Assembly (NCBI GenBank): GCA_004298335.1
Contig: SCTG01000015.1
Coordinates: forward strand, 6,092-70,091
Source of the DNA: Nitrospirota bacterium
Lineage (GTDB): Bacteria; Nitrospirota; Nitrospiria; Nitrospirales; NS-4
Length of the DNA stretch: 64,000 nucleotides
Direction: 5' to 3'
The notes under the pieces were generated by a model. That model was not told the DNA's origin. It worked only from the letters and a program-made list of their open reading frames with translations, and did no database searches. Shown here one piece after another: positions 17,019 through 63,619 of this stretch. A program made the position numbers and the translations under genes. Each line of letters begins with the position of its first letter. Positions within the stretch are counted from its first letter, which is position 1.

Positions 17019-17534
17019 ATGATGAAAAAGCTGGGACTGATGCTAGTAGCAATAGCGGTCGTGTGTTTTCCGGCCGTGGGGGCAATGGCGGCCAATCCCG
17101 ATAACGGCCCGGGTTGCGGCCTTGGGAAACTCGCATGGTCGGATTTTGGCCACCAGAAGAATATTGGCCCCCAGGTCATGATGGCCACGACCAACGGAAC
17201 CTTCGGGAGCCAGACGTTCGGTATCAGTTCCGGCACGTCAGGTTGCACGAACGACGGGGTCGTATTCGCGGAAGAGAAAGTGAATGTATTTGCCGCGATC
17301 AACTTTGAAAATCTGTCGCAGGAAATGGCGCAAGGACGGGGAGAGCATCTTGCCTCCCTGGCGACGCTCATGGGAGTTCCGGCCGAGCACCAGGCCGAGT
17401 TCTTCGCGATGACCCAGGAGAAGTACACCACCCTGATCCAGGCGGGTGATGCGGCACCGGTTGCCATGCTCAAGGCCTTGAATGCGGCGATGGCCGGCCA
17501 CCCGGCGCTTGCGAAACTTTCCGCGAAGCGGTAG
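17019..17534 (+). CDS. DUF3015 family secreted protein
   Basis: 171 aa with a signal peptide. GPGCGLGK...TTNGTFGSQTFGISSGTSGC...LSQEMAQGRGEHL matches my memory of DUF3015. Confidence 0.75.
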   Translation: MMKKLGLMLVAIAVVCFPAVGAMAANPDNGPGCGLGKLAWSDFGHQKNIGPQVMMATTNGTFGSQTFGISSGTSGCTNDGVVFAEEKVNVFAAINFENLSQEMAQGRGEHLASLATLMGVPAEHQAEFFAMTQEKYTTLIQAGDAAPVAMLKALNAAMAGHPALAKLSAKR

Positions 17535-17542
17535 TCGCCTTC

Positions 17543-17587
17543 AAAACGGGGCTTCCGGTCCCAAAGCCGGGAGCCCCGTTTTCTTTT
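17543..17587 (+). terminator. Intrinsic terminator after the DUF3015 gene
   Basis: 16-bp stem: AAAACGGGGCTTCCGG (17543-17558) pairs with CCGGGAGCCCCGTTTT (17567-17582), including one G-U pair, around an 8-nt loop. Followed by CTTTT. Confidence 0.6.
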
Positions 17588-17601
17588 GGCCTTCCTCGAT
17601 C

Positions 17602-19509
17602 TTGCACGCACTGGCCGGCTTTCTCCTGGGCCTTCTGCTTCTCTCAACGACGGCCGGCACCGCCGATGCGAAAGACGACGCCTACCTTGCCGAACTGATC
17701 AGCCGTTCTTCCGAAGCGCGTCTCTCCGAGCAGCGGTACTGGCATCTCCTGCTGCATTACCGTGAAGACTTCGGAGGCGGGTACACGAGTGAGGCGGATG
17801 ACCCCGGCTTCTTCCTGGCGCCAACCGGCAAGACCGACCCTCGGGCCGAACTGGAAGCGACGCTGGCCCGGTTTTTTTCCGATGAGCTTGTCGGCCGGTC
17901 ACGCCAACCGGCGCAATGCGCCTTCATCGCGCGCTACCATTGGCTGAAATCCAGACTGGCGATCGATGACCAGCGTCTCCCCCCGCTGCCCTGTGACCGC
18001 TTCAAGGCGTGGTACGCCGAACTGAATCCCCAATCCGTATCGTATATTTTTGCCGCGGCTTTCATGAACAACCCTTCGTCCATGTTCGGCCATACATTTT
18101 TGCGCATTGACCAAAAAGGGCAAACCGAGCAGACGCGCTTGCTGGCGTATACGATCAACTATGCGGCCGACGTCACGACCGATAGCGGCGTCGCTTTTGC
18201 GTTTCTGGGAATAACCGGCGGCTTCAAAGGGTATTTTTCGACGATGCCGTACTACCTGAAGGTCCAGGAATACCGGGATTTCGAGAATCGCGACATCTGG
18301 GAGTACCGGCTTAATCTGACTGAGGCGCAGGTCGAGCGGATGCTGCAACACGCCTGGGAGTTGGGCAATGCCTACTTTGATTATTATTTCTTCAAGGAGA
18401 ATTGCTCCTATCACCTCCTCTCCCTGCTGGAGATCGCCGATCCCGAACTGCATCTCGCCGATCAGTTCGTATTCTGGACAGTTCCCGCCGATACCGTGAA
18501 GCTGGTCACCAGGCAGACGGGTCTTGTCGAGACAGTCACGTACCGACCTTCGCGGAGCACGCAGATCCGCCGCAAACGGGAGACGCTGACGGATGAGGAA
18601 CAACAGTGGCTCCATCGGATCATTGCCGATCCTGCCGCCGCACACGCCACAGAGTTTACCGGCCTGCCGCTTCAGCGACGCACGCTGATTTTGGACGTCG
18701 CCTCTGACTACCTTCTCTACCGCAGCGCAACGGATGGGGCGCATGCCGCTTCCTATAAGGAGAAAACCAGGAACGTGCTCACGGCCCGCAGTGGGCTCAA
18801 AGTCCCATCGGAAGAATTGGCGGTCCGGCCGTTCGCCCAACGGCCGGAACTCGGACATCTGACATCGCGGGCCGGAGTGGGAGCCGGGTGGCGCCAGGAC
18901 GAATGGTTCGAAGAACTGAACATTCGCACCGGCTACCACGATCTGCTCGATCCCGAGACCGGCTACACGCCCGGCGCCCAGATCGAGCTGCTGGCGCTGA
19001 GCCTCCGTCACTATGAAAAGCGGGACCGAACCCGGCTGGAACGCGCCACGCTGGTGAACATCCTGTCCCTGTCTCCGTCCGATGCCTTGTTCCAGGCGCC
19101 GTCATGGAAACTCAACGCCGGCTATGAGACGGTGAACCGGCCCGGCTGCCGCTACTGCGGCAACGCCAACCTGAACGTCGGGATCGGACCCTCCTTCGAG
19201 ACGCACTGGCTTCGGCGCGAAGTCTTCTTCGCTTTCGCCGAGGCCGACGCCAACTACAGCCACGCGTTCGAGCGGAACCACCGGATCGGCGGAGGCGGCA
19301 CCGTCGGCATGCTGGCCGATCTCACCGAACGCTGGAGGGTGCTGGTGTCGGGGACGTATCTCGGATTCCCGCTGGGGGAAAACTCCGACGAACTGCGCGC
19401 GTCGGTCCAGCAGCGGTACACGCTCCGGAAAGACCTCGCGCTTCGGCTGGAGTTCAATCACCGGCCGCACGACAATGACGCGGTGCTCTCGATCCAGGTC
19501 TATTTCTGA
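17602..19509 (+). CDS. DUF4105 (Lnb N-terminal periplasmic domain-like) protein with C-terminal beta-barrel-like region
   Basis: Start placed at the in-frame TTG 17602, because the track start at 17482 lies upstream of, and reads through, the terminator. Signal-like LHALAGFLLGLLLLSTTAGTADA. The GHTFLRID motif region is typical of DUF4105. The C-terminus ...AVLSIQVYF looks like an OMP beta-signal. Exact start uncertain. Confidence 0.7.
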   Translation: MHALAGFLLGLLLLSTTAGTADAKDDAYLAELISRSSEARLSEQRYWHLLLHYREDFGGGYTSEADDPGFFLAPTGKTDPRAELEATLARFFSDELVGRSRQPAQCAFIARYHWLKSRLAIDDQRLPPLPCDRFKAWYAELNPQSVSYIFAAAFMNNPSSMFGHTFLRIDQKGQTEQTRLLAYTINYAADVTTDSGVAFAFLGITGGFKGYFSTMPYYLKVQEYRDFENRDIWEYRLNLTEAQVERMLQHAWELGNAYFDYYFFKENCSYHLLSLLEIADPELHLADQFVFWTVPADTVKLVTRQTGLVETVTYRPSRSTQIRRKRETLTDEEQQWLHRIIADPAAAHATEFTGLPLQRRTLILDVASDYLLYRSATDGAHAASYKEKTRNVLTARSGLKVPSEELAVRPFAQRPELGHLTSRAGVGAGWRQDEWFEELNIRTGYHDLLDPETGYTPGAQIELLALSLRHYEKRDRTRLERATLVNILSLSPSDALFQAPSWKLNAGYETVNRPGCRYCGNANLNVGIGPSFETHWLRREVFFAFAEADANYSHAFERNHRIGGGGTVGMLADLTERWRVLVSGTYLGFPLGENSDELRASVQQRYTLRKDLALRLEFNHRPHDNDAVLSIQVYF

Positions 19510-27078: not shown

Positions 27079-27155
27079 TGGTGGCCCCGGCGAGAATTGA
27101 ACTCACGACAAACGGTTTAGGAAACCGCTGCTCTATCCAACTGAGCTACGGGGCC
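27079..27155 (-). tRNA. tRNA-Arg (anticodon CCT)
   Basis: The reverse complement folds as a cloverleaf: GGCCCCG-TA-GCTC-AGTTGGATA-GAGC-A-GCGGT-TTCCTAA-ACCGT-TTGTC-GTGAG-TTCAATT-CTCGC-CGGGGCC-A-CCA. The CCA tail is encoded. Confidence 0.9.
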
Positions 27156-53384: not shown

Positions 53385-54272
53385 ATGGCTGAAGAAAGCA
53401 AGAAGAAAGAAGACCTCGACAAGGCGAAGGCCGAGCCGAAACCCGCGGACGCGACGTCGGCCATGCCCGATGGGTCGAACAAGTCCGACTACATCCCGAC
53501 GGGTATCGAACAGGCCGTTGCCGCGGCTGAGACGCCGGCGGCGGAGGCCGCTGCGCCCGTTGAAGAAAAAGCCCCGGAGCCGAAGGTCAAGGACGAGGTC
53601 GAGATCCAGATCGACCTTCTGAAGGAAAAGGACTGGTTCCGCCGCAAGGAAGCCGCCATCACGCTGGGCGAGATGGGCGACGAGCGGGCGGTGGCCCCCC
53701 TCATCGCGGCGTTGCGGGATGACGAATGGAACGTCCGCGAGGCGGCCGAGGACTCGCTGGCGATGATCGGCTCCCCCGCCGTCGAGCCGCTGATCAAGTC
53801 CCTGCGCGAGTACCAGACCCGGCGCTATGTCATCAAGGTCCTCGGCAGGATCAAGGACGAACGGGTGCTGGATCCGCTGTTCGTCCAGCTTCGCAACGAA
53901 GAGTTCAAGGATGACGCCACGGCGGCGCTGGTGGAGGTGGGCCTTCCGGCCGTGGAGCGGCTCACGGCGGTGCTCAACGACAAAGACAAGAACGTCCGCA
54001 AGCACGCCGTCCTGGCGCTCGGCGCGATCGGGCTCCCGGAGGCGGTGGAATTGCTGATCGAGGCCACCAAGGACGATGAGTGGGAGGTGCGCATGGCGGC
54101 GATTGCGGGCCTCGACGGCATCGGCGACGATCGGGGCAAGCCCGCCATCAAAGCCCTGACCAAAGACCCCGACTTCGCGGTCCAGATGCGCGCGGAACGC
54201 ATCATCTGGGGCTGGAAGAAGAAAGACAAGCAGGTCAAGGAAGAAATCAAAGAGAAGTCCGGGACCGCGTAA
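53385..54272 (+). CDS. HEAT-repeat (PBS-lyase HEAT-like) protein, cytoplasmic-looking
   Basis: An acidic/Lys-rich N-terminal approximately 90 aa, then about 6 repeats of D..W.VR..A...LG.IGD..AV.PLI..L.D. Confidence 0.75.
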   Translation: MAEESKKKEDLDKAKAEPKPADATSAMPDGSNKSDYIPTGIEQAVAAAETPAAEAAAPVEEKAPEPKVKDEVEIQIDLLKEKDWFRRKEAAITLGEMGDERAVAPLIAALRDDEWNVREAAEDSLAMIGSPAVEPLIKSLREYQTRRYVIKVLGRIKDERVLDPLFVQLRNEEFKDDATAALVEVGLPAVERLTAVLNDKDKNVRKHAVLALGAIGLPEAVELLIEATKDDEWEVRMAAIAGLDGIGDDRGKPAIKALTKDPDFAVQMRAERIIWGWKKKDKQVKEEIKEKSGTA

Positions 54273-54275
54273 TCC

Positions 54276-54707
54276 CTATTTCGCCAGCAGCTGATCCAGT
54301 TCCTTCACCAGTTCATCCACGCGCGCATGCAGTCCCGTCTTGAGGGCCTGCGCCTCGGTCTTTACGCCTGACAGTTTTTCGGCGACCTTCCGGAGTTTCC
54401 CCTGGAGTTCCTCGCCGCCGGCATCCCCGGCCTTGGTGAGGGACTGTGCGGCTTCCTCGAGGCTGGCGACGGCCTTGCCGTAGTTCTTGTCGAGCAATTC
54501 CGACTTCGCCTGCACCAGCCGCTCCTTTGCGTTCACGATCCCCGTGCGGACGGCGAGGCTGCGCTCCACCGAACTCGTCTTGGCGACGACGTCGGCGCCA
54601 AGCTGCTTGGCCTTGTGCAGCACATTTTCAGGCCCTTTCTGGCCGACGTATACGCCGAGCCCGAACGCGAGACCGAGCACCACCAGGAACCCCAGGAATT
54701 TGAGCAT
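54276..54707 (-). CDS. N-terminally anchored coiled-coil membrane protein, hypothetical
   Basis: 143 aa. TM helix MLKFLGFLVVLGLAFGLGVYVG, then an Ala/Lys/Glu-rich helical region. Confidence 0.5.
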   Translation of the reverse strand: MLKFLGFLVVLGLAFGLGVYVGQKGPENVLHKAKQLGADVVAKTSSVERSLAVRTGIVNAKERLVQAKSELLDKNYGKAVASLEEAAQSLTKAGDAGGEELQGKLRKVAEKLSGVKTEAQALKTGLHARVDELVKELDQLLAK

Positions 54708-54731
54708 GGCGTTCTCCTCGTTAATCTACGG

Positions 54732-55859
54732 CTACGGTTTCTTTCCGCCCGCGACGGCGCCGAGATGGCCCGCGGCGAATGCGCGGACGGTCAGGTCCTT
54801 GTCCAGCAGCGCGCGTCTCAGATAGGGGATGGCCGTCCTGCCCCCGATCCGCCCGAGCGCCTGGACCGACGCCACGCGCACCCGCGGGGCGGGATCGTCG
54901 AACGTCTCCAACGCAAGGGCCGTGGCGCGGCTCGGATCGCTTCGGGCCATCGCCCCGACGGCCGCGCTCCGGACGCCGTAATCGGGGTCCCTGACCAGCT
55001 CGCGGATGGCCAGCGCCGCCTCGCCCTCCCCCAGCCGGACGAGCGATTCCGCCGCGGCCACGCGGACGAGCGAATCGGAATCCTTGACGGCCCCCCACAA
55101 CGCGGGAATGGCCACCTTGGCGTTGAGCCGGCCCAGGCTCGCCGCGGCGAAGTTGCGGACGTAGGGGTCCTGATCGCTCAGCGCGTCCACCAGGGCGGAC
55201 ACGGCCGACATCGCGCCGAGATCGCCCAACGCTCCGGCGGCGAACGAACGGACCGAGGGCTCCGGGTCGTGCAGGCCGAGAGTCAATGCCGAGAGGGCCG
55301 ACGGATCCTTCAAGCGGCCGAGAATGCCCATGGCCGCGCCGCGCACGCCGGGACTGAAGTCCCGCGCCGCCGCCAGGAAAGGCTGTACCGCCGTGGTCTG
55401 TTTGAGGCGCACCAGGGCCTCGCGCGCCACCAGTTGGACGATGGGGTCTTTATCGTTCAGGCCCTGCCGCACCACGCCGACGACCGACGGGTCCCTGGAG
55501 AGTCCCAGGGCGGACAGTGCGGCGATACGGACGTTGCTGTCAGGGTCGTTCGCCGCCGCGCGCACCGTCGGAAGCGTCGCGGCGACCCCCATGCGGCCTG
55601 CGGTCTGGATTGCAAACGCGCGTACCCTGGGAGACGGGTCGCGCAGCGCCGTTGCCAGCACGGCCTGTGTGCCCGACGGTCCCAATTCAGCCAGCGCGGT
55701 CGCCGCTGCGCCCCGGACGAATTCCTGGTCGTGCGTCAGTAGCGTCGTCAGCACCTCCAGGGACAGTCTCACGTCGTCATCTGCCGCCGAGACGGGCACG
55801 CCCGGCAAGAGCAGGAGCCACCAGGCAAGCATGAGGGAGCAAGCGACGAGCCTGTTCAT
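54732..55859 (-). CDS. Secreted HEAT-repeat protein
   Basis: Signal peptide (LLLLPGVPVSAADD), then about 11 HEAT-like repeats (D.D..VR..AA.ALG.LG...A...L...L.D). Confidence 0.8.
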   Translation of the reverse strand: MNRLVACSLMLAWWLLLLPGVPVSAADDDVRLSLEVLTTLLTHDQEFVRGAAATALAELGPSGTQAVLATALRDPSPRVRAFAIQTAGRMGVAATLPTVRAAANDPDSNVRIAALSALGLSRDPSVVGVVRQGLNDKDPIVQLVAREALVRLKQTTAVQPFLAAARDFSPGVRGAAMGILGRLKDPSALSALTLGLHDPEPSVRSFAAGALGDLGAMSAVSALVDALSDQDPYVRNFAAASLGRLNAKVAIPALWGAVKDSDSLVRVAAAESLVRLGEGEAALAIRELVRDPDYGVRSAAVGAMARSDPSRATALALETFDDPAPRVRVASVQALGRIGGRTAIPYLRRALLDKDLTVRAFAAGHLGAVAGGKKP

Positions 55860-55939
55860 GGCGCGATCTTACCAGTAATTCCGGCCGGTGGGAATGCCGG
55901 GAATGGCCCCGGTGCGTTCATTGACAGGGGTAGGTAAAT

Positions 55940-56878
55940 GTGCGACCTTTGCGCATCCCGCTCATGGCTACAGAAATTGACCAGGAACGGCCCAGGGTCC
56001 GGGTTCCGCCGTCATGGATTGCGCTGCTTGCGCTTGTCGGCGCCGGGGTCCTCGGGGCGGTGTATTGGCTGGAGCCGACCTGGAGGCAGGTCAATGAAAG
56101 CCTGGACGGCGTCGGCCAAGTGTCTTCGACCGCAGAACAACCGGCCGTCCAGGTCCCGGAAGCGATGTTTCCCGCGCGGCGTTCCACAGCGCCCGGTCCG
56201 GGCCCGCCGGAGAGGGCGCGCGCGGCGGATCCCGCGGCGGCCGTGGCCCAGCTCAAGAATGCCCGGCTGACGGCAACGCTCGCGCTGTTGCAGCGGTGGG
56301 GGTTCTTTCGATCCGCCACGGCCGAGAAGCTGGCGGGGCGGGACCCCGCCCGTTTGATCAAGCAGTCCGGCCTGAAGTCGGCCAGGCTGCCGGTTGACTG
56401 GGCGCTGCTGGAACGGCTTGATTATCCCTGCCTGCTGGACTGGAAGGAAACCCCCGATGATTTCCGGCATGCCGTCGCGCTCCTGGAACTCAGCCCGACG
56501 GAAGCCGTGATTTTTGATCCGCTCATGGGCCGGCGGGTCGTGAGCCGCGAGGACCTGCCGGGGCATATCGATGGCGAAGCGATCATTTTGTGGAAGGGCC
56601 TGCCCGGCATCAGGGTTCCGCTGCGGGCCAGGAAGGGGACGGACCCCGCGGTGGCGGCCCTCCAACAGGCGCTCAAAAAGCAGGGACTGCTGGGCGCGGC
56701 CGTGCCCGGGGTGTACGATTCCTCCACGCGCGCGGCCGTGGTTCGGCTCCAGTCCGAGCACGGCCTGAAGGCGACGGGCGTTTTCGGCGTGCGCAGCTAC
56801 ATGGTTCTGTCCAAACGCGTGCTGGGCGCGAAGGCGCCGAGCGTCAAAGCCGGACCGGGCGCGCCTGTGAAGGACTAG
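55940..56878 (+). CDS. Membrane-anchored peptidoglycan-binding-domain protein (GspA/ExeA C-terminal-half-like, no ATPase domain)
   Basis: TM helix WIALLALVGAGVLGAVYWL. C-terminal PG_binding_1-like text (VAALQQALKKQGLL...GVYDSSTRAAVVRLQSEHGLKATGV). Start is GTG 55940 or ATG 55964. Confidence 0.65.
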   Translation: MRPLRIPLMATEIDQERPRVRVPPSWIALLALVGAGVLGAVYWLEPTWRQVNESLDGVGQVSSTAEQPAVQVPEAMFPARRSTAPGPGPPERARAADPAAAVAQLKNARLTATLALLQRWGFFRSATAEKLAGRDPARLIKQSGLKSARLPVDWALLERLDYPCLLDWKETPDDFRHAVALLELSPTEAVIFDPLMGRRVVSREDLPGHIDGEAIILWKGLPGIRVPLRARKGTDPAVAALQQALKKQGLLGAAVPGVYDSSTRAAVVRLQSEHGLKATGVFGVRSYMVLSKRVLGAKAPSVKAGPGAPVKD

Positions 56879-56914
56879 GCATGGTTTCCCTGGATGGTAG
56901 CTCTACGGGGTCTG

Positions 56915-56923
56915 TGGTATTAT
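56915..56923 (+). promoter_or_regulatory. Extended -10-like element upstream of the PstS-like gene
   Basis: TGGTATTAT (56915-56923), about 50 nt before the ATG at 56974. AGGAGAGG RBS follows. Confidence 0.3.
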
Positions 56924-56973
56924 CGGCGGCAGGGTGCCCGGAGACGCACGATTTTTAACGAGGAGAGGATGAT

Positions 56974-57804
56974 ATGTTCGCGCGCGTGATCATTTTGTTC
57001 GCAATCCTATTCGGATGGGCGGGGATTCCGCTCGCAGAAGCGGCCTCGGATCTCAGCGGCAAGCTGACCTTGTTCGCGGCCGGGCGGGAACAGGCCCTCT
57101 TCGAGAAGGCGGCGGTGAAATTCGAGAAGCTGAATCCCAGGGTCCGCACTCGGTTCGGGGTGACGGACGGCGCCGAGCCGCTGGCGGCGCTGGCCGACGG
57201 CTCGGCGGACGTGGCGGTTCTGGGGAGAGCCCTGAAGCCCGAGGAGAAGGAGTGGGCCGGCACGGTGGTGGGCTGGGAGGGGATCGCCGTCATGGTCAAC
57301 GCCTCCAACCGGGTCATGGACGTCACGATGAAACAGATCGCCGACCTCTTTGAAGGGAAGGCCAAGACCTGGGATGAGCTGGGGGGGCTGGAAGCCAGGG
57401 TCTCCGTCATCCACCGGGAGGACGGCAAGGGTGTGCGGCCCTACCTGGAACAGCAATTGAACCTGGTCGGCAAGCTTGTGAACGGGAAGGGCGTGGTGGA
57501 GCCCGACAAGGAGGCCATCCGCATGGTGTCGGGGAACCTCAATGCGGTCTCCTACGTCAACCTCAGCACGGGGCTCGGCAACGTCAACGTCGGCGTGCCG
57601 ATCCGCCTGCTGTCGATCAGCAAAGTCGAGCCGGAACCTGCCAACGTGTCCTCCGGCGCGTATCCCCTGCGCCGGCCGCTCGTGCTCGTGACGAAAACGC
57701 CGCCGTCGCCGGTTGCCAAGGCCTTCATCGACTTCATGCTGGACAAGGAAGGCCAGAAGACCGTCCTGGAAGAGGATTTCGTGCCGCTCCTCGTCACGAA
57801 GTAG
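56974..57804 (+). CDS. PstS-family (PBP-like_2) periplasmic substrate-binding protein, orphan
   Basis: Signal peptide. GADVAVLGRALKPEE......IAVMVN..N.V...T..QIADLFEGK...W.ELGG is typical of PstS/PhoT-family binding proteins. No pstCAB genes are adjacent. Confidence 0.8.
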   Translation: MFARVIILFAILFGWAGIPLAEAASDLSGKLTLFAAGREQALFEKAAVKFEKLNPRVRTRFGVTDGAEPLAALADGSADVAVLGRALKPEEKEWAGTVVGWEGIAVMVNASNRVMDVTMKQIADLFEGKAKTWDELGGLEARVSVIHREDGKGVRPYLEQQLNLVGKLVNGKGVVEPDKEAIRMVSGNLNAVSYVNLSTGLGNVNVGVPIRLLSISKVEPEPANVSSGAYPLRRPLVLVTKTPPSPVAKAFIDFMLDKEGQKTVLEEDFVPLLVTK

Positions 57805-57818
57805 GCGACGCGCAAAGG

Positions 57819-59732
57819 ATGGACGCCGGGCACCAGAGACCGACGAAACCGGGCAAGGCCCCGGAGACGCCGGGCCGGCTAAGGCTCGGCGAACTGCTGG
57901 CGGCGCGCGGGCTCATCACGCGCCAGATCCTCGATCAGGCGCTTGCCGCGCAACGCCAGTCGGGAAAGCGCATCGGGGACATTCTCCTCGACTTCGGCCA
58001 TGTGACTGAAGTGCAGATCCTCCCTCTGCTCAGCGATCACCTGAAGGTCCCCTACACCGACGTGTCCTCCCTCACCCTGAGCCCGGATACACTGGACCTC
58101 CTGCCGGAGGACCTGGCGCGCAAGTACACGGCCATCCCGATCAGCCGGCACGGAAAACGATTGGAGTTGGTGATGGCCGATCCCATGGACTACGAGGCGG
58201 TCCGGGATCTCTCATTTGCGACGGGGAGCAAGGTCACGGCCAAACTCGGAGGCCGGTCCCAAATCCTGGAAGCCATCGACCGGTTCTATGCGCGGCATTT
58301 GGAAGGGGCGGAACGCCTGATGGCGAAAGGCGTCGGGCATGCGCCCGCCGAGCCGATGCTCACGGCGCGCTCCCAGGCGCCCAGCGCGCTGGACGCGGAC
58401 GTCGAGGGCGCGCCCGTCATCCAGCTCATGAACCTCATCATGCGCAAGGCGATCCAGATGGGGGCCAGCGACATCCACATCGAGCCCGGCGTGCCGGATG
58501 GCACCGTCCGGTTCCGGCTCGACGGCTTGCTGTCCGATCAGCTCAAGGTGCCGGCCGCGCTCCATCCGGCCCTGGTGTCCCGCCTCAAAGTCATCGGCCG
58601 GCTCGACATCGCGGAGCGCCGCCTGCCGCAGGACGGTTCGGTCCGGGTGACGGTGGAAGGGAGCGAGGCGGATCTCCGGGTCTCGATCATTCCGCTCCAG
58701 CACGGCGAGAAAGCGGTGATCCGGGTCCTGGACACCTCGACCAGAAGCCTGGAACTCGAAGACGTCGGCCTGGTGGCCGACGATCTGAAGAAGGTCCAGA
58801 GCCTCATCGAGCGCCACCGGGGGATGGTCGTGGTGACAGGGCCGACCGGCAGCGGCAAGACCACGACCCTGTACGGCATCCTGAACCGGATCAAGTCGCC
58901 GACGACCAACATCGTGACCGTGGAAGATCCGGTCGAGTACCAGCATCCGGGGCTCAACCAGGTGCAGGTCAACGCGGACATCGGGCTGACCTTCGCCGCG
59001 GGCCTCCGGTCGATCCTCCGCCAGGACCCGGACATCATCCTGGTCGGGGAGATCCGCGACGCCGAAACGGCCGAGATCGCCTGCCGGGCGGCGCTGACCG
59101 GCCACCTGGTCTTCACCACGCTCCATACGAACGACGCGCCCTCCACCATCACGCGCCTGCTGGACATCGGCGTGCCCGCGTACCTGGTGTCCTCGGTGCT
59201 GATCGGCATCATCGCCCAGCGCCTGGTCCGGACGGTGTGCAAAAACTGCAAGGCCCCGTCTTCGCCCGACGCCAGCGGGATCGTCGGGCTGGGCCTGTCC
59301 GCCGTCAGCCTGGCGGGCGGCACGTTCATGGCCGGCAAGGGCTGCGTCAAGTGTCAGGAGAGCGGGTACAAGGGCCGGACCGGCGTCTTTGAAACGCTGG
59401 TGATGAATCCGCGCATCCGCGACCTCATTCTCCGCCAGTCGGCGGAGGAGGACATCCGGCTTGCCGCCCAGGAGAGCGGCATGCGCAGCCTTGTGCAGGA
59501 CGGGCTGGACAAGGCCAAGGAGGGCCTGACGACCGTCGAGGAACTCGGCCGGGTGCTGGAGGTCAGCGAGTACGCCTCGATCAGCTGTCCGGGGTGCGGC
59601 CGCCTGCTCAACTCCGAATACCGGTTCTGTCCCACCTGCCGGGCGACCCTCCGCCGCCTCTGTCTCGGCTGCGGGCGCGTCCTTCAGTCCGGCTGGATCG
59701 TCTGCGCCCATTGCGGGCAAGAGTACAAGTAG
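57819..59732 (+). CDS. GspE/PilB-family secretion ATPase with MshEN-type N-domain and additional C-terminal double zinc ribbon
   Basis: Walker A GPTGSGKTT, Walker B/Asp box DPDIILVGEIRD, His box TGHLVFTTLHTN, and internal CKNC...CVKC. N-terminal RLGELLAARGLITRQILDQALAAQ-RQSGK-RIGDILLDFGHV.... Tail CPGC..(x11)..CPTC...CLGC..(x10)..CAHC. Confidence 0.9.
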   Translation: MDAGHQRPTKPGKAPETPGRLRLGELLAARGLITRQILDQALAAQRQSGKRIGDILLDFGHVTEVQILPLLSDHLKVPYTDVSSLTLSPDTLDLLPEDLARKYTAIPISRHGKRLELVMADPMDYEAVRDLSFATGSKVTAKLGGRSQILEAIDRFYARHLEGAERLMAKGVGHAPAEPMLTARSQAPSALDADVEGAPVIQLMNLIMRKAIQMGASDIHIEPGVPDGTVRFRLDGLLSDQLKVPAALHPALVSRLKVIGRLDIAERRLPQDGSVRVTVEGSEADLRVSIIPLQHGEKAVIRVLDTSTRSLELEDVGLVADDLKKVQSLIERHRGMVVVTGPTGSGKTTTLYGILNRIKSPTTNIVTVEDPVEYQHPGLNQVQVNADIGLTFAAGLRSILRQDPDIILVGEIRDAETAEIACRAALTGHLVFTTLHTNDAPSTITRLLDIGVPAYLVSSVLIGIIAQRLVRTVCKNCKAPSSPDASGIVGLGLSAVSLAGGTFMAGKGCVKCQESGYKGRTGVFETLVMNPRIRDLILRQSAEEDIRLAAQESGMRSLVQDGLDKAKEGLTTVEELGRVLEVSEYASISCPGCGRLLNSEYRFCPTCRATLRRLCLGCGRVLQSGWIVCAHCGQEYK

Positions 59733-59752
59733 GGGCGATTCGTGAATCGCCC
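59730..59752. repeat. Second copy of the TAG-GGGCG..CGCCC palindromic element
   Basis: TAG GGGCGATTC-GT-GAATCGCCC. The TAG (59730-59732) is the gspE-like stop. The central GTG (59742-59744) is the predicted pepF start. Confidence 0.55.
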
Positions 59753-61511
59753 AGACTCCAAATCCGCCTCCTGGAACCTCCAAGATCTGCTCTCTGATCC
59801 GCTCCGGGACCTCGAGCTGTTGCGCAAAGAGGTGGACGGCCAGGCCCGGCGGTTCGAGGAATTCCGGGCGCGGCTGTCGCCCGACATCCCGTTCGAGACA
59901 TTTCTGGACGCCCTGCGCCTGGCCGACACGATCGCGCGGACGACGAGCCGGCTCGGAGCCTATGCCTTTCTCTGGTTCTCGGAGAACACGAAGGACCAGC
60001 GCGCGCGCTCGTTCAAGGCGATCGTCGAAGAGCTGCAGGCGGGGCTCGCCAACCGCATGCTGTTCTTCGATCTCTGGTGGCAGAAGCTCGATGACGCGAA
60101 CGCCGGACGGCTGCTGGCCCGGTCGGGAGACTACGCCTACCACCTGGAGTCCCTGCGCCGCTTCCGGGAGCATGCGCTCAGCGAGCCGGAAGAGAAGATC
60201 GTCAACGTCAAAAGCGTCACCGGCCGGCAGGCGGTCGTCGGGCTCTACGACATCCTTACCAGCGGCCTGAGCTACCGGCTGAAGGTCGGGGGCCGGGTGC
60301 GCGCGCTGACCCGCGAGGACCTGATGCGGTACGTGCGCGATCCGGACGCCCGCATGCGGGAGGCGGCCTATCGCGAGCACTTCCGGGTGTATGCCGCGAA
60401 CGCCGACGTGATCGGCGACATCTACAAGACGCTGGTGCTGGACTGGAAGCAGGAGAACCTGGGCCTCCGCCGGCACCGCTCGCCGATCGCGGTGCGCAAT
60501 CTGTCGAACGACATTCCCGAGGACGCCGTCGAGGCCCTGCTGAACGTCTGCGCCGCGAACGCCGGCGTTTTCCAGGACTATTTCAAGCTCAAGGCCCGGC
60601 TGTGCCGCATCAGGAAGATGAGCCGGTACCACATCTACGCGCGCTTTCAGGAGCCCGGCAAGCGGCACACGTTCGCGCGCGGGTCGAAGATGGTGCTGGA
60701 CGCCTATCGCGGCTTCTCGCCCCGGCTGGCGGACCTGGCGCAGCGCGTGCTCGATGAGCGCCACGTGGATGCGGCCATTCACCCCGGCAAGGTCGGCGGC
60801 GCTTTCTGCTACAGCGTGGTCCCGGAATTCACGCCGTACGTGCTGCTGAACTTCAAAGGCGACGTCCGGGACATCGCCACGCTGGCCCACGAACTGGGAC
60901 ACGCCGTGCACGGGATGCTGGCGGCCGGCCATTCGGTCTTCACCTTCCATGCCACGCTGCCGCTGGCCGAGACGGCCTCGGTGTTCGGCGAGCGCATCCT
61001 GTCCGACGCGCTGATGGCGGGCGAGCGGGACCGGGCGGTCAAGCAGGGGCTGCTCATCCGGCAGCTCGATGACGTGTACGCCACCATCTTGCGACAGGCG
61101 TATTTCGTCCGGTTCGAGCGCGAGGCGCACCGGATCATCGGCGAGGGCGGCACGATGGACGACCTCTGCGGCGTCTATCTGTCCGAGCTGCGGCGGCAGT
61201 TCGGCCGGGCCGTGGCGGTGCCGGATGAATTCCGGTGGGAGTGGCTGACGATCCCGCATCTCTTCGCCAGTCCCTTCTATTGCTACGCCTACAGCTTCGG
61301 CAATTTGCTGGTCCTGGCGCTCTACGGGCTGTACAAGACGCAGGGGGCCTCGTTCGTGCCGCGGTATCTCGATCTGCTGGCGGCCGGCGGCTCGCGGGCG
61401 CCGGAGTCGCTGCTCAAGGACTTCGGCGTGGACATCCGGTCGGAGGCGTTCTGGCAGACGGGGTTCGAGACGATCAAGGGGATGGTGCGGGAGCTGGAGG
61501 CGACGGCATGA
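59742..61511 (+). CDS. pepF: M3-family oligoendopeptidase F
   Basis: 589 aa with a GTG start. SWNLQDLL opening and zinc motif HELGHAVH with a downstream E. Confidence 0.88.
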   Translation: MNRPDSKSASWNLQDLLSDPLRDLELLRKEVDGQARRFEEFRARLSPDIPFETFLDALRLADTIARTTSRLGAYAFLWFSENTKDQRARSFKAIVEELQAGLANRMLFFDLWWQKLDDANAGRLLARSGDYAYHLESLRRFREHALSEPEEKIVNVKSVTGRQAVVGLYDILTSGLSYRLKVGGRVRALTREDLMRYVRDPDARMREAAYREHFRVYAANADVIGDIYKTLVLDWKQENLGLRRHRSPIAVRNLSNDIPEDAVEALLNVCAANAGVFQDYFKLKARLCRIRKMSRYHIYARFQEPGKRHTFARGSKMVLDAYRGFSPRLADLAQRVLDERHVDAAIHPGKVGGAFCYSVVPEFTPYVLLNFKGDVRDIATLAHELGHAVHGMLAAGHSVFTFHATLPLAETASVFGERILSDALMAGERDRAVKQGLLIRQLDDVYATILRQAYFVRFEREAHRIIGEGGTMDDLCGVYLSELRRQFGRAVAVPDEFRWEWLTIPHLFASPFYCYAYSFGNLLVLALYGLYKTQGASFVPRYLDLLAAGGSRAPESLLKDFGVDIRSEAFWQTGFETIKGMVRELEATA

Positions 61512-61516
61512 GTCTC

Positions 61517-61634
61517 ATCGCTGAACTTTCGAGGGTCCTGCCGCCGATTTCCCCCGCCGGCTTCAGCTGCGAAGACTGGCCTCTAGGCGGCGGGGGGCCC
61601 CCAATCGGCGTCACCCATTCTCAAGTTCAGCGAT
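61517..61634 (+). other. About 118-nt nested inverted-repeat element (structured RNA, complex terminator or MITE-like remnant)
   Basis: Three nested complementary pairs: ATCGCTGAACTT (61517-61528) with AAGTTCAGCGAT (61623-61634); CGCCGATT (61542-61549) with AATCGGCG (61603-61610); CCCCCGCCG (61551-61559) with CGGCGGGGG (61588-61596). Confidence 0.5.
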
Positions 61635-63062
61635 TTGGTTAAGCCGATGAATATCTTTGACGGCCTCGATCAGCATATCCAACAAAGTCGCCCGCGGTTT
61701 GAGGAGTGGCTGGGGCGGCTGGTGGAGGTGCCGACGGTCAGCATGGACCCGGCCCGGCGCGGGGACATGCGGCGGGGGGCCGGGGTCGCCGTCGAGTACC
61801 TGCGGGAGCTCAAGGCCGAGGCCGCGATCGTTGAGACCGGCGGCCATCCGATGGTCGTGGGCGGCTGGGTGCGCAATCCAGCCTGGCCGACGGTCACGGT
61901 GTACAACCATCTCGACGTGCAGCCGGCGATGGAGCCGGAATGGACACGCGAGCCCTTCACGTTTGCCGTAGACGGCGATCACTATTACGGCCGGGGAACG
62001 ACGGATGACAAGGGCCCGGCGCTGACCGCGCTGCTGGCGGCCTACTTCGCCGTCGAGCACGGCGTCCCGCTGAATATCCAGTTCCTCTGGGAGCTTGAGG
62101 AAGAAATCGGCAGCCCGCATTTCGCGGCGGGCCTGGCCAATCTCACCCGCCCGCCCAAGGCGCGCCAAGACGCGCCCCTTCCCGTTTTCCGCAAACCGGA
62201 TTCTGTGGTTGTTTCGGATACGATCTGGCTGGCGGGGGGACGCCCGGCGGCGCCCTACGGTTTGCGGGGCAACCTGGCCGCGCGGCTCACGCTGGAAACC
62301 GCGAAGCGCGAGGCGCATTCCGGGTTGACGGGAGGCGTGGCCCGCAATCCCCTGACGGAGCTGGCCGCCGTGGTCTCGGCCTGCGTGGATGCGAAGAGCG
62401 GCCGCGTCACGATCCCGGGTTTTTACCGCGCGGTCAAGCCGTTGGGGAAGGCAGACCGGGCGCAATTCCTGAAGTCGGGCTTCCAGGTCGCCTCCTTTGC
62501 CGCGGCGCATCAACTGACGAAGCTGCGCGTGCGGGACCGCGCCGAGGCCATGCGCCGCCTCTGGGCGGAACCGACCTTCGAAGTCCACGGCTTCGTCGGA
62601 GGCTACCAGGGTCCGGGAGTCAAGACGTCCATCCCGCCCCGGGCCGAGGCGAAGGTCAGCATGCGGCTGGTGCCCGACCAGGACCCGGCCGCCCTGTTCT
62701 CGCTGTTCCGGAAATACGTCCGCAAGCTCAACCCGGACGTTCGCGTGGAGGCAGACGGCATGTTGCGGCCCTACGCGGCTGATCTTGGAGGGCCCTATGC
62801 CGAAACGTTGCGACGGGCCCTGCGGTTCGGCTTTGGGAAAGAGCCGGCCTTCATCCGGGAAGGCGGGTCCATCGGCGCGGTCGTGACCATGGCGGAACAA
62901 TGGAAGGCGCCCGTCATGTTCCTGGGATTGAGCCTGCCGGAGCACGGGTACCACGCGCCGAACGAGCGGTTCGATTGGGGCCAGGCGTCCGGCGGGATGA
63001 AGGCCTTCGTCAAGTACTTCGAGGAAGTCAGCCGGATACCGGTGAAGAGGAGGGTGCGATGA
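61635..63062 (+). CDS. M20-family metallopeptidase (dipeptidase / ArgE-DapE-CPG2 family)
   Basis: 475 aa. YNHLDVQP, GRGTTDDKGP and EEEIGSP are typical M20 metal-site motifs. Start is TTG 61635 or ATG 61647. Confidence 0.85.
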   Translation: MVKPMNIFDGLDQHIQQSRPRFEEWLGRLVEVPTVSMDPARRGDMRRGAGVAVEYLRELKAEAAIVETGGHPMVVGGWVRNPAWPTVTVYNHLDVQPAMEPEWTREPFTFAVDGDHYYGRGTTDDKGPALTALLAAYFAVEHGVPLNIQFLWELEEEIGSPHFAAGLANLTRPPKARQDAPLPVFRKPDSVVVSDTIWLAGGRPAAPYGLRGNLAARLTLETAKREAHSGLTGGVARNPLTELAAVVSACVDAKSGRVTIPGFYRAVKPLGKADRAQFLKSGFQVASFAAAHQLTKLRVRDRAEAMRRLWAEPTFEVHGFVGGYQGPGVKTSIPPRAEAKVSMRLVPDQDPAALFSLFRKYVRKLNPDVRVEADGMLRPYAADLGGPYAETLRRALRFGFGKEPAFIREGGSIGAVVTMAEQWKAPVMFLGLSLPEHGYHAPNERFDWGQASGGMKAFVKYFEEVSRIPVKRRVR

Positions 63063-63619
63063 AACGAGTCTATGTCCTCACGGCGCTGCTGGCGGTGCTG
63101 CTGACGGCGACCGGGTGTCTCTTCGGCTATGGGGCGGTGGACTACATCGTGCCGGATCCCAAGGCTGAAACGAACATGGTGTTTGCAGCACGAACCGTCG
63201 CGCAGCTCAAGACGCTGGCCATCGGGCAATCCCGCGACGAGGTGTTGGAGCGGCTGCGCTTGGAGCCGGTCGAAGGCTGCGTGGAGTGGAGCTGGGAGAG
63301 CCGCGAGTTTTATTTGCGCCACAACGGCTGGCTGCGCTGCGTCAAGTCCACAATGCTGCAGAGCCCCTATCGGACCGCGTTGCTTGATCTTGACGGGATC
63401 CGCCATGAGGCGCTGTTCTATTACACGGGCGGAACCGGTCCGGAGGGCGGCATTACCGATGAGCAACTCACGCCGGTGTTGATCGTCGGCGGCAAGCTGG
63501 TCGGGTGGGGATGGAATCACCCGCTGATGAAGCAGCTCAAGGCGGGCCTTGCGGCCGCGCAAGCCGCCGCCGTGTCTGTCCAGATGGATGACCGCCCGCC
63601 GCCCCAGTCTCCGCGCTGA
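63059..63619 (+). CDS. Putative lipoprotein, hypothetical
   Basis: ATGA overlap with the M20 stop. Lipobox LTATGC. No family recognised. Confidence 0.5.
   Translation: MKRVYVLTALLAVLLTATGCLFGYGAVDYIVPDPKAETNMVFAARTVAQLKTLAIGQSRDEVLERLRLEPVEGCVEWSWESREFYLRHNGWLRCVKSTMLQSPYRTALLDLDGIRHEALFYYTGGTGPEGGITDEQLTPVLIVGGKLVGWGWNHPLMKQLKAGLAAAQAAAVSVQMDDRPPPQSPR

Follow-up and report, generated by a model that had tools for sequence, protein, structure and literature searches.

What is the task of a secretion-type ATPase when no secretion genes accompany it? This question is raised by a locus at positions 55940 to 59732 of a 64-kb stretch of Nitrospirota DNA (contig SCTG01000015.1; the whole stretch is referred to here as the window). 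Three open reading frames (ORFs) follow one another there and encode a membrane anchor (ORF1), a protein with the fold of the periplasmic binding protein PstS (ORF2, designated as PBP), and an ATPase of the PilB/GspE/MshE class (ORF3). Judged from its sequence, the ATPase is a member of a large and distinct subfamily combining MshEN, T2SSE, and double zinc ribbon (DZR) domains, which is so far uncharacterised. An earlier reading of this DNA made from the letters alone (the sequence-only reading) had placed three ORFs here; they were found at these coordinates, all on the + strand, and the gap between ORF2 and ORF3 was re-measured as 14 nucleotides (nt). The features of the locus, with lengths in amino acids (aa), are as follows.

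55940..56878, + strand: ORF1, GspA/ExeA-type anchor, 312 aa when read from GTG (Pfam, family alignment)
56915..56923, + strand: extended -10-like element TGGTATTAT (cross-locus conservation)
56974..57804, + strand: ORF2, PstS-fold protein (PBP), 276 aa (PBP_like_2)
57819..59732, + strand: ORF3, MshEN-PilB/GspE-type ATPase with C-terminal DZR, 637 aa (TAL12503.1)
57882..58040, + strand: predicted MshEN-type motif for binding of cyclic di-GMP (c-di-GMP), 53 residues (NF053729 and regular expression)
58839..59138, + strand: catalytic core boxes, i.e., Walker A, Asp box, Walker B, and His box
59238..59354, + strand: tetracysteine zinc site, CKNC ... CVKC, in the C-terminal ATPase domain (family alignment)
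59586..59714, + strand: double zinc ribbon CPGC, CPTC, CLGC, CAHC (PF12773)

The window has G+C content of 65%, and the G+C content at third codon positions (GC3) of the three ORFs is 0.81-0.89. Pfam domains were sought in those ORFs of the 64-kb window that are 150 aa or longer. The domains named in the sequence-only reading, i.e., MshEN, T2SSE, DZR, PBP_like_2, and PG_binding_1, were all matched by their profiles (Pfam/NCBIfam).

The ATPase and its subfamily

The ATPase, currently labelled by NCBI as 'type II secretion system protein GspE [Nitrospirae bacterium]', scored 429 bits with T2SSE (PF00437) and 66.5 bits with MshEN in Pfam. A model of the c-di-GMP motif (NF053729) covers its residues 22-72 with 56.7 bits against a cut-off of 38; motif 1 takes up residues 22-45, the spacer RQSGK residues 46-50, and motif 2 residues 51-74. 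Walker A (341-348), Asp box (366-374), Walker B (403-414), and His box (433-440) are at least 90% conserved among 95 relatives of the ATPase. The tetracysteine pairs CKNC (474-477) and CVKC (509-512) are conserved in the same relatives, and the statement that all GspE/PilB boxes and the tetracysteine site are present was correct. A further zinc site is predicted at the pairs CPGC (590), CPTC (604), CLGC (615), and CAHC (629), which the DZR model PF12773 recognised at residues 590-633 with 35.6 bits, above its cut-off of 27.3. This ribbon is conserved across the 95 relatives together with the MshEN, catalytic, and tetracysteine motifs.

The best matches among solved structures are Geobacter PilB (5tsg), Myxococcus PilB (3jc8), and Thermus PilF. 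Solved PilB/PilF chains align from residue 21 to about residue 580 of the ATPase, with E values of 1e-135 to 1e-144. The ribbon (residues 588-637) is in no solved structure, because the PilB/PilF/GspE chains align only to about residue 587. The four additional CxxC pairs do represent a double zinc ribbon, as had been proposed, and one lying outside the solved PilB, GspE, and PilF chains. Both equivalog models scored below their cut-offs: 577.1 bits with TIGR02538 (PilB), for which 675.65 are required, and 557.3 bits with TIGR02533 (GspE), for which 630.25 are required.

To follow the breadth of the subfamily, 1.84 billion cluster representatives (50% identity) were searched exhaustively with HMMER, and the best 150 matches were examined. 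Forty-six of these 150 representatives have the ATPase core and a DZR of the same spacing, CxxC-x13/14-CPxC-x7/9-CxxC-x11-CPYC, with a conserved Trp inside the last spacer. The relatives carrying DZR range from 92% down to about 41% identity and come from Nitrospirales, other Nitrospirota, Holophagaceae (Holophagae), Solibacteraceae, and Syntrophobacteraceae. More than 100 residues lie beyond the ribbon in 25 of the 46 representatives. When nine of the long C-terminal add-ons were sampled, Response_reg was identified in eight, and GAF with HD_5 (HD-GYP-type) in the remaining one. N-terminal extensions were recorded in ten DZR-type representatives. Because of the receiver and GAF-HD-GYP fusions, the subfamily is strongly tied to signal transduction.

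In a rough neighbour-joining (NJ) tree, the DZR proteins cluster together, apart from Escherichia coli GspE and from a gammaproteobacterial group of Vibrio, Aeromonas, and other sequences, which need not be MshE proteins. A separate GspE/PilB-type protein lacking DZR (P0114) was found in Nitrospirota.

The solitary habit of the ATPase gene is common to the subfamily. No GspF/PilC platform, secretin, or prepilin peptidase gene was recognised by Pfam among the scanned ORFs of the window, and no pilin gene either, short ORFs, where pilins could lie, being outside the scan. Genes pilC, pilD, pilT, or other pilus genes were found neither among these ORFs nor in 12 contexts of relatives, and there are no gspC-M genes in the window. 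The 12 neighbourhoods are from outside the window's lineage (three Holophagae, two Nitrospirota lineages, Syntrophobacteraceae, Solibacteraceae, and several unassigned contigs) and include one receiver fusion and one in-clade relative without DZR. Platform, pilin, and secretin genes were absent within about 8 kb in all 12 contexts, where the ATPase gene is flanked mostly by unrelated housekeeping genes. The ATPase had been described as an orphan. This is a trait of the whole subfamily, solitary in 12 of 12 contexts, and not an accident of the window.

Some of the flanking genes are of interest on their own. In one lineage (49% identity), a ComEC gene with DUF4131, Competence, and Lactamase_B domains is directly upstream of the gene for the DZR-ATPase (L083/L084:5413-7941). 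In a second lineage (46% identity), ComEC is two genes upstream (L090:3296-5899), with a PF04185 phosphoesterase gene between. The recurring ComEC neighbourhood may point to a connection with DNA uptake. On another contig (L089:7637-11565), a receiver-fused DZR-ATPase is preceded by an Hpt gene and followed by genes for a sigma-70 region-4 protein and then a stand-alone DZR protein.

What a solitary motor may do

The explanation favoured here, held with about even confidence, is that the ATPase is a PilB/MshE-class motor of the DZR subfamily which acts in trans on an unlinked partner and which, in one Nitrospirales group, would have been drawn into an operon that also encodes a repurposed PstS-fold protein and two cytoplasmic peptidases, beside an optional GspA-derived anchor. 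A functional hexameric ATPase of this class would stand at the centre of the locus, and it would probably not be the product of the housekeeping pilB or gspE gene. By homology, its four-helix N-terminal MshEN module would bind c-di-GMP and tune the motor, and the DZR, with about two extra zinc ions per chain, would be the docking module of the subfamily for a partner encoded elsewhere. Controlled by a second messenger or a phosphorelay, the motor or switch would exert its effect in trans, its target being an unlinked type IV filament or type II secretion system (T2SS) platform, or another membrane partner. A controlled motor or switch is the most likely role because members of the subfamily are solitary and often fused to receiver or GAF-HD-GYP domains. 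We infer the action in trans, as well as any contacts among anchor, PBP, and ATPase.

Several points speak against this explanation, and those on c-di-GMP come first. The published MshEN motif, RLGxx(L/V/I)(L/V/I)xxG(L/V/I)(L/V/I)xxxxLxxxLxxQ, occurs twice with a 5-residue spacer, and a relaxed search form of it was published too (PMC5013675). When compared by regular expression, motif 1 of the ATPase agrees with the relaxed form but has one mismatch to the strict form, Ala at position 7. In motif 2, positions 11 and 24 are both His, which puts it outside even the relaxed form; the His at position 11 is the family consensus in the alignment of ATPase relatives. In Thermus PilF, the domain GSPII-A, with one good and one degenerate motif, did not bind c-di-GMP (PMC11731258). 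Because motif 2 deviates and because of this precedent of a degenerate motif, c-di-GMP binding by the ATPase's N-terminal domain is likely but not certain. The sequence-only reading had called the match to the MshEN consensus almost exact; the tandem 24-residue motifs and the RQSGK spacer are indeed there, but motif 1 departs from the strict form and motif 2 from the relaxed one.

The remaining points concern the subfamily and its surroundings. The NJ tree is without support values, and three DZR-less sequences lie inside its DZR group. No paper combining MshEN with a zinc ribbon, or GspE/PilB with a double zinc ribbon, was retrieved from the literature library searched. Partner genes were sought in the 64-kb window only, and a cluster for a type IV pilus (T4P) or T2SS lacking its own ATPase may be present elsewhere in the genome. 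Finally, synteny within one order could partly reflect inheritance rather than selection.

It is conceivable, if rather improbable, that the protein is a signalling ATPase independent of any filament. It would then be a nucleotide-dependent switch, its DZR would recruit a regulatory target, and its operon partners would be co-regulated and not physical ones. The frequent receiver and GAF-HD-GYP fusions fit such a switch, and so do the neighbourhood with Hpt, sigma factor, and DZR protein and the solitary position among housekeeping genes. A precedent exists as well, as Myxococcus PilB was proposed to be a nucleotide-dependent switch in exopolysaccharide control (PMC5544727). However, the full catalytic apparatus and the hexamer-forming domains are conserved and would fit a mechanical role equally well, and canonical PilB proteins, too, are under c-di-GMP control without ceasing to power filaments.

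A comparably tentative proposal is that DZR motors are a functional class of their own among PilB-like motors and work without a pilus or pseudopilus. Controlled by c-di-GMP and a phosphorelay, the motor would engage a client other than pilin by its zinc-ribbon tail and, in Nitrospirales, would be wired to the PBP, which would have a new ligand specificity, and to the GspA remnant. Candidates for the client would be a membrane or regulatory protein or, as ComEC is a repeated neighbour, nucleic acid during uptake.

That the ATPase is a displaced housekeeping enzyme, the only PilB/GspE of the cell serving an ATPase-less T4P or T2SS cluster elsewhere beside irrelevant neighbours, seems unlikely. 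Its similarity to PilB over the full length would agree with displacement, and the negative result on partners covers the 64-kb window. The subfamily-wide solitary habit, the sub-threshold scores with both equivalogs, and the fusions nevertheless weaken this explanation: the solitary position recurs in 12 of 12 contexts across several phyla, as a single displacement event would not, signalling domains are fused to many of the members, the DZR is specific to the subfamily and outside solved PilB/GspE chains, and P0114, without DZR, exists in Nitrospirota as a protein of GspE/PilB type.

The probable Nitrospirales operon and its partners

In Nitrospirales, the ATPase gene has the PBP gene as its neighbour, and the gene order was followed by scanning metagenome contigs with the PBP. 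The scan gave 62 loci, 38 of them with room downstream, 23 with more room, and 53 with enough sequence upstream. The DZR-ATPase gene is next after the PBP gene in 37 of the 38 loci, with gaps of 12-58 nt, and the adjacency of the two genes, for which a conservation check had been proposed, is therefore kept. Seen from the ATPase gene, the PBP gene lies upstream in every Nitrospirales-type locus (at least 68% identity) that has sequence on that side. Outside one Nitrospirales group, the ATPase occurs without anchor and without PBP. A peptidase gene of the M3 family follows the ATPase gene in 22 of the 23 loci, and usually a gene of the M20 family follows then. In the window, these two are as follows.

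59742..61511, + strand: M3-family oligoendopeptidase, PepF-like, cytoplasmic (Pfam, TIGR02290)
61635..63062, + strand: M20-family peptidase, cytoplasmic, last conserved gene of the string (Pfam, synteny)

The M3 gene starts 9 nt past the stop codon of the ATPase gene in the window, and the two genes overlap by 4 nt in the related locus L081. A scan for intrinsic terminators at 55700-63400 gave nothing informative, and there is no terminator-like site between the PBP and M3 genes. The genes for PBP, ATPase, M3, and M20 are likely to be an operon because of the gaps of 14 and 9 nt, the missing terminator-like site, and the overlap in L081. The end of the locus had been set at 59732 and was probably set too early, as the transcription unit more probably continues into the M3 gene, found at this place in 22 of 23 loci, and then the M20 gene.

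The element TGGTATTAT at 56915-56923 precedes the start codon of the PBP gene by about 50 nt. Its form TGGTAnnAT is invariant in eight loci, some of which have a PBP only 65-72% identical and flanking intergenic sequence that can no longer be aligned. This conservation amid diverged flanks upholds the claim that the PBP gene has an extended -10 of its own. A sigma-70 promoter scan, which requires a -35 hexamer, gave no match at 55700-63400. We infer that the four genes PBP, ATPase, M3, and M20 may be co-transcribed from the extended -10. A riboswitch or other known RNA in the PBP leader was considered and rejected, as no match at Rfam gathering level was obtained at 55700-57900, only chance-level ones with E up to 1.

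Upstream of the PBP gene, the order is variable. Among the 53 loci with enough sequence, a gene for a rhomboid-family protein is there in 34, a GspA-like gene followed by the rhomboid gene in 10, a GspA-like gene in 8 (the window included), and neither in 1. The gene directly upstream of PBP is thus a rhomboid-family intramembrane protease gene in 44 of the 53 loci, and it is absent from the window. Rhomboid genes without window counterpart are as follows.

L005:8392-9090: rhomboid gene
L127:4253-4924: rhomboid gene
L081:6406-7086: rhomboid gene

The rhomboid gene is lost from the window's lineage, and the ancestral locus is rich in protease-related genes (C39-like, M3, M20). The anchor is an optional accessory of the locus, present in 18 of the 53 loci. 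The proposal that the three genes of the window are one module was not confirmed, since so few loci have the anchor and since the usual upstream neighbour is the rhomboid gene.

The PBP itself matches PBP_like_2 with 95 bits in Pfam, and the PstS model TIGR02136 with 124.7 bits, below the cut-off of 206.6. Solved PstS structures match it at E of about 1e-26; 4h1x, 4gd5, and 4q8r were aligned. Its N-terminus, MFARVIILFAILFGWAGIPLAEA/AS, is an ordinary Sec signal peptide with cleavage at AEA/AS. When the loops of the pocket are compared with solved PstS, GSTS is replaced with AGRE, GSSAG with DGAEP, and R-x3-SGT with REDGKGV; the altered residues are GRE 37-39, DGAEP 65-69, and GKGV 151-154, and the substitutions are conserved in 123 members of the PBP family. 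The loops GSTS, GSSAG, and R-x3-SGT are taken by us to hold the phosphate-binding residues, according to E. coli PstS. Phosphate sensing is unlikely because these residues are replaced, and the ligand of the PBP is, by its sequence features, probably not phosphate. No pstC, pstA, or pstB gene was found among window ORFs of at least 150 aa or at the 62 related loci, and phosphate sensing or uptake was rejected as the function of PBP on account of the replaced loops and the absence of pstCAB. The family is narrow, with 197 database matches at E 1e-10, the matches listed being all at least 71% identical, and it is confined to Nitrospirales-type contigs. The description of ORF2 as a PstS-like binding protein without pstCAB partners therefore applies to its fold, its Sec signal, and its neighbourhood, but not to the phosphate site, which is replaced in 123 members.

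The start codon of ORF1 is probably the ATG at 55964, as called by NCBI and as in homologues, which gives 304 aa. The protein has a short conserved cytoplasmic tail, one transmembrane helix, a Pro/Ala-rich linker, a C39-like domain at about residues 100-220, and PG_binding_1 at residues 235-283 (45 bits; cut-off 23). Peptidase_C39 scored 17.2 bits, below its cut-off of 22, and 23-28 bits, above the cut-off, in orthologues. An AlphaFold2 model built from a 12-sequence alignment had a mean pLDDT of 63, and 80-88 at residues 100-220. When this model was searched by Foldseek, 4g54, which is the periplasmic domain of EpsAB, a GspA-GspB fusion from Vibrio vulnificus, was the top match in PDB (E 1.2e-6, 220 of 222 columns), followed by C39 peptidases and C39-like domains. 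E. coli GspA is collinear with ORF1 in pairwise BLAST and hhalign, without significance.

At the same position in another locus (L127:2289-4256), a protein of 655 aa is encoded which has AAA_22 (99.9 bits), a transmembrane helix, C39-like, and PG_binding_1, i.e., the architecture of GspA/ExeA. ORF1 is 46% identical to residues 308-647 of this orthologue (E 3e-91). The full-length AAA+ form is in loci L102, L103, L106, L127, and L141, and the form without AAA+ is in the window and its closest relatives. The half-gene looks maintained, because 74-80% identity is kept among these closest relatives. The AAA+ domain is absent from ORF1, with only 80 nt to the divergent gene of a HEAT-repeat protein, and the cytoplasmic tail DQERPxVRVPxSW and the periplasmic domains were kept after the loss of the AAA+ half. 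ORF1 corresponds to the membrane and periplasmic parts of a GspA/ExeA-type factor whose AAA+ domain was deleted in this sub-lineage. Its resemblance to the C-terminal half of GspA/ExeA, recognised before, is now supported by the fold match to 4g54 and by the full-length orthologue in L127. No recognisable candidate for GspB/ExeB is in the window. A GspA-like ORF open to the contig edge was also observed in L091:2-400, where a Mur-ligase-like stretch leads into the end of an ExeA-type AAA+ domain (GLPRLINFLCDKAL); it may represent a chimera of the assembly or a gene that was rearranged.

A self-contained envelope machine, along the lines of the c-di-GMP-gated, ligand-sensing machine suggested in the sequence-only reading, in which the anchor tail would bind the DZR, the PBP would dock on the periplasmic domain of the anchor, and ligand occupancy in the periplasm would be coupled to c-di-GMP-gated ATP hydrolysis, is doubtful: genes of GspA type and MshE/GspE type, belonging to the same machine class, do share one locus, the anchor keeps its tail and periplasmic domains, and the PBP-ATPase pairing is nearly invariant, but the anchor is absent from 35 of the 53 loci keeping this pair, a promoter-like element of the PBP gene's own lies downstream of the anchor gene, the ATPase keeps its DZR without either partner outside the lineage, and anchor-less loci have no membrane platform to transmit a signal except rhomboid, itself absent from the window.

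The other neighbours in the window are genes of HEAT-repeat proteins, RimO, an RlpA-like protein, HtrA, a two-component pair, an RND efflux pump, and housekeeping genes. At 53385-55859, directly upstream of the locus, there is a trio kept in most related contigs: a HEAT-repeat gene (+ strand), a gene for a coiled-coil membrane protein of 143 aa (- strand), and a second HEAT-repeat gene with signal peptide (- strand). An antisense ORF of 1015 aa (58212-61259, - strand) faces the ATPase and M3 genes and was rejected as a shadow ORF of GC-rich DNA, the + strand ORFs having GC3 of 0.88-0.91. The sole match at Rfam gathering level in the window is a tRNA gene at 27082-27155 (- strand). A protein with Lnb_N, DUF7840, and DUF7843 is encoded at 17482-19509, 38 kb from the locus, and its counterpart in a 68%-identity relative (L081:2262-4172) is about 3 kb upstream of the PBP gene. 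The surroundings of the four-gene string are therefore rearranged.

Meaning of the locus and comparison with known systems

The ATPases PilB, GspE, and MshE are regarded as motors dedicated to type IV filaments and to type II secretion. The DZR subfamily suggests either a common trans-acting regulation of these machines or an undescribed job for the motor, a lead relevant to specialists in type IV filaments and c-di-GMP signalling. All parts of the locus are of known kinds: a secretion-superfamily ATPase, MshEN, DZR, the PBP fold, and GspA. What appears to be undescribed is the combination of MshEN, T2SSE, and DZR as a broad orphan subfamily, the PstS-fold partner without phosphate site, and the GspA without AAA+. 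The locus also offers two evolutionary cases, a PstS fold repurposed away from phosphate and a GspA factor surviving without its ATPase half. The groups in which members were found, Nitrospirales, Holophagae, Solibacteraceae, and Syntrophobacteraceae, matter in the environment and are difficult subjects for genetics. The labels GspE, PilB, and TadA, as well as 'phosphate transport substrate-binding protein', are probably misleading for these proteins.

The Sulfolobus bindosome assembly system (Bas), whose secretion-type ATPase is required for placing substrate-binding proteins at the cell surface, is a conceptual parallel only, in which a secretion-superfamily ATPase is encoded together with a substrate-binding protein. 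Unlike in Bas, the signal peptide of ORF2 is an ordinary Sec one and not class III, and there is no BasF-type membrane protein and no pilin-like gene at the locus. The BasE model gave a generic match to the ATPase, with 37.6 bits against a cut-off of 1000. A bindosome-like surface assembly of the PBP was rejected because its signal peptide is not of class III (prepilin-type).

With PstS, the binding protein of the phosphate ABC transporter, the PBP shares the fold family and the Sec signal peptide, and it differs in the TIGR02136 score, in the replaced loops, and in the lack of pstCAB. With GspA/ExeA, the peptidoglycan-binding factor that serves, with GspB/ExeB, in assembly of the T2SS secretin, the anchor shares the arrangement of transmembrane helix, C39-like domain, and PG_binding_1; unlike GspA/ExeA, it is without the AAA+ half, with no GspB recognised and no secretin gene in the window.

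PilB and PilF have the same domain order and catalytic boxes as the window ATPase. Unlike PilB, the ATPase is below the cut-off of TIGR02538, is not encoded beside pilC, pilD, or pilT, and has the extra residues 588-637. PilF of Thermus has three GSPII domains, whereas the window ATPase has a single one.

With MshE, the extension ATPase of the Vibrio cholerae MSHA pilus and a c-di-GMP receptor (PMC5013675), the ATPase shares the 53-residue tandem motif, the C-subdomain of MshEN, T2SSE, and the tetracysteine site. It differs in its neighbourhood, where the ORFs of 150 aa or more include no msh platform, pilin, or secretin gene, and also by its DZR, by His at positions 11 and 24 of motif 2, and by its place outside the NJ group that holds the Vibrio and Aeromonas sequences, which need not be MshE proteins. 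A further likeness to MshE is in the gene order, as a GspA/MshM-type AAA+ gene is located upstream in some relatives of the window and echoes the msh order mshM-mshN-mshE.

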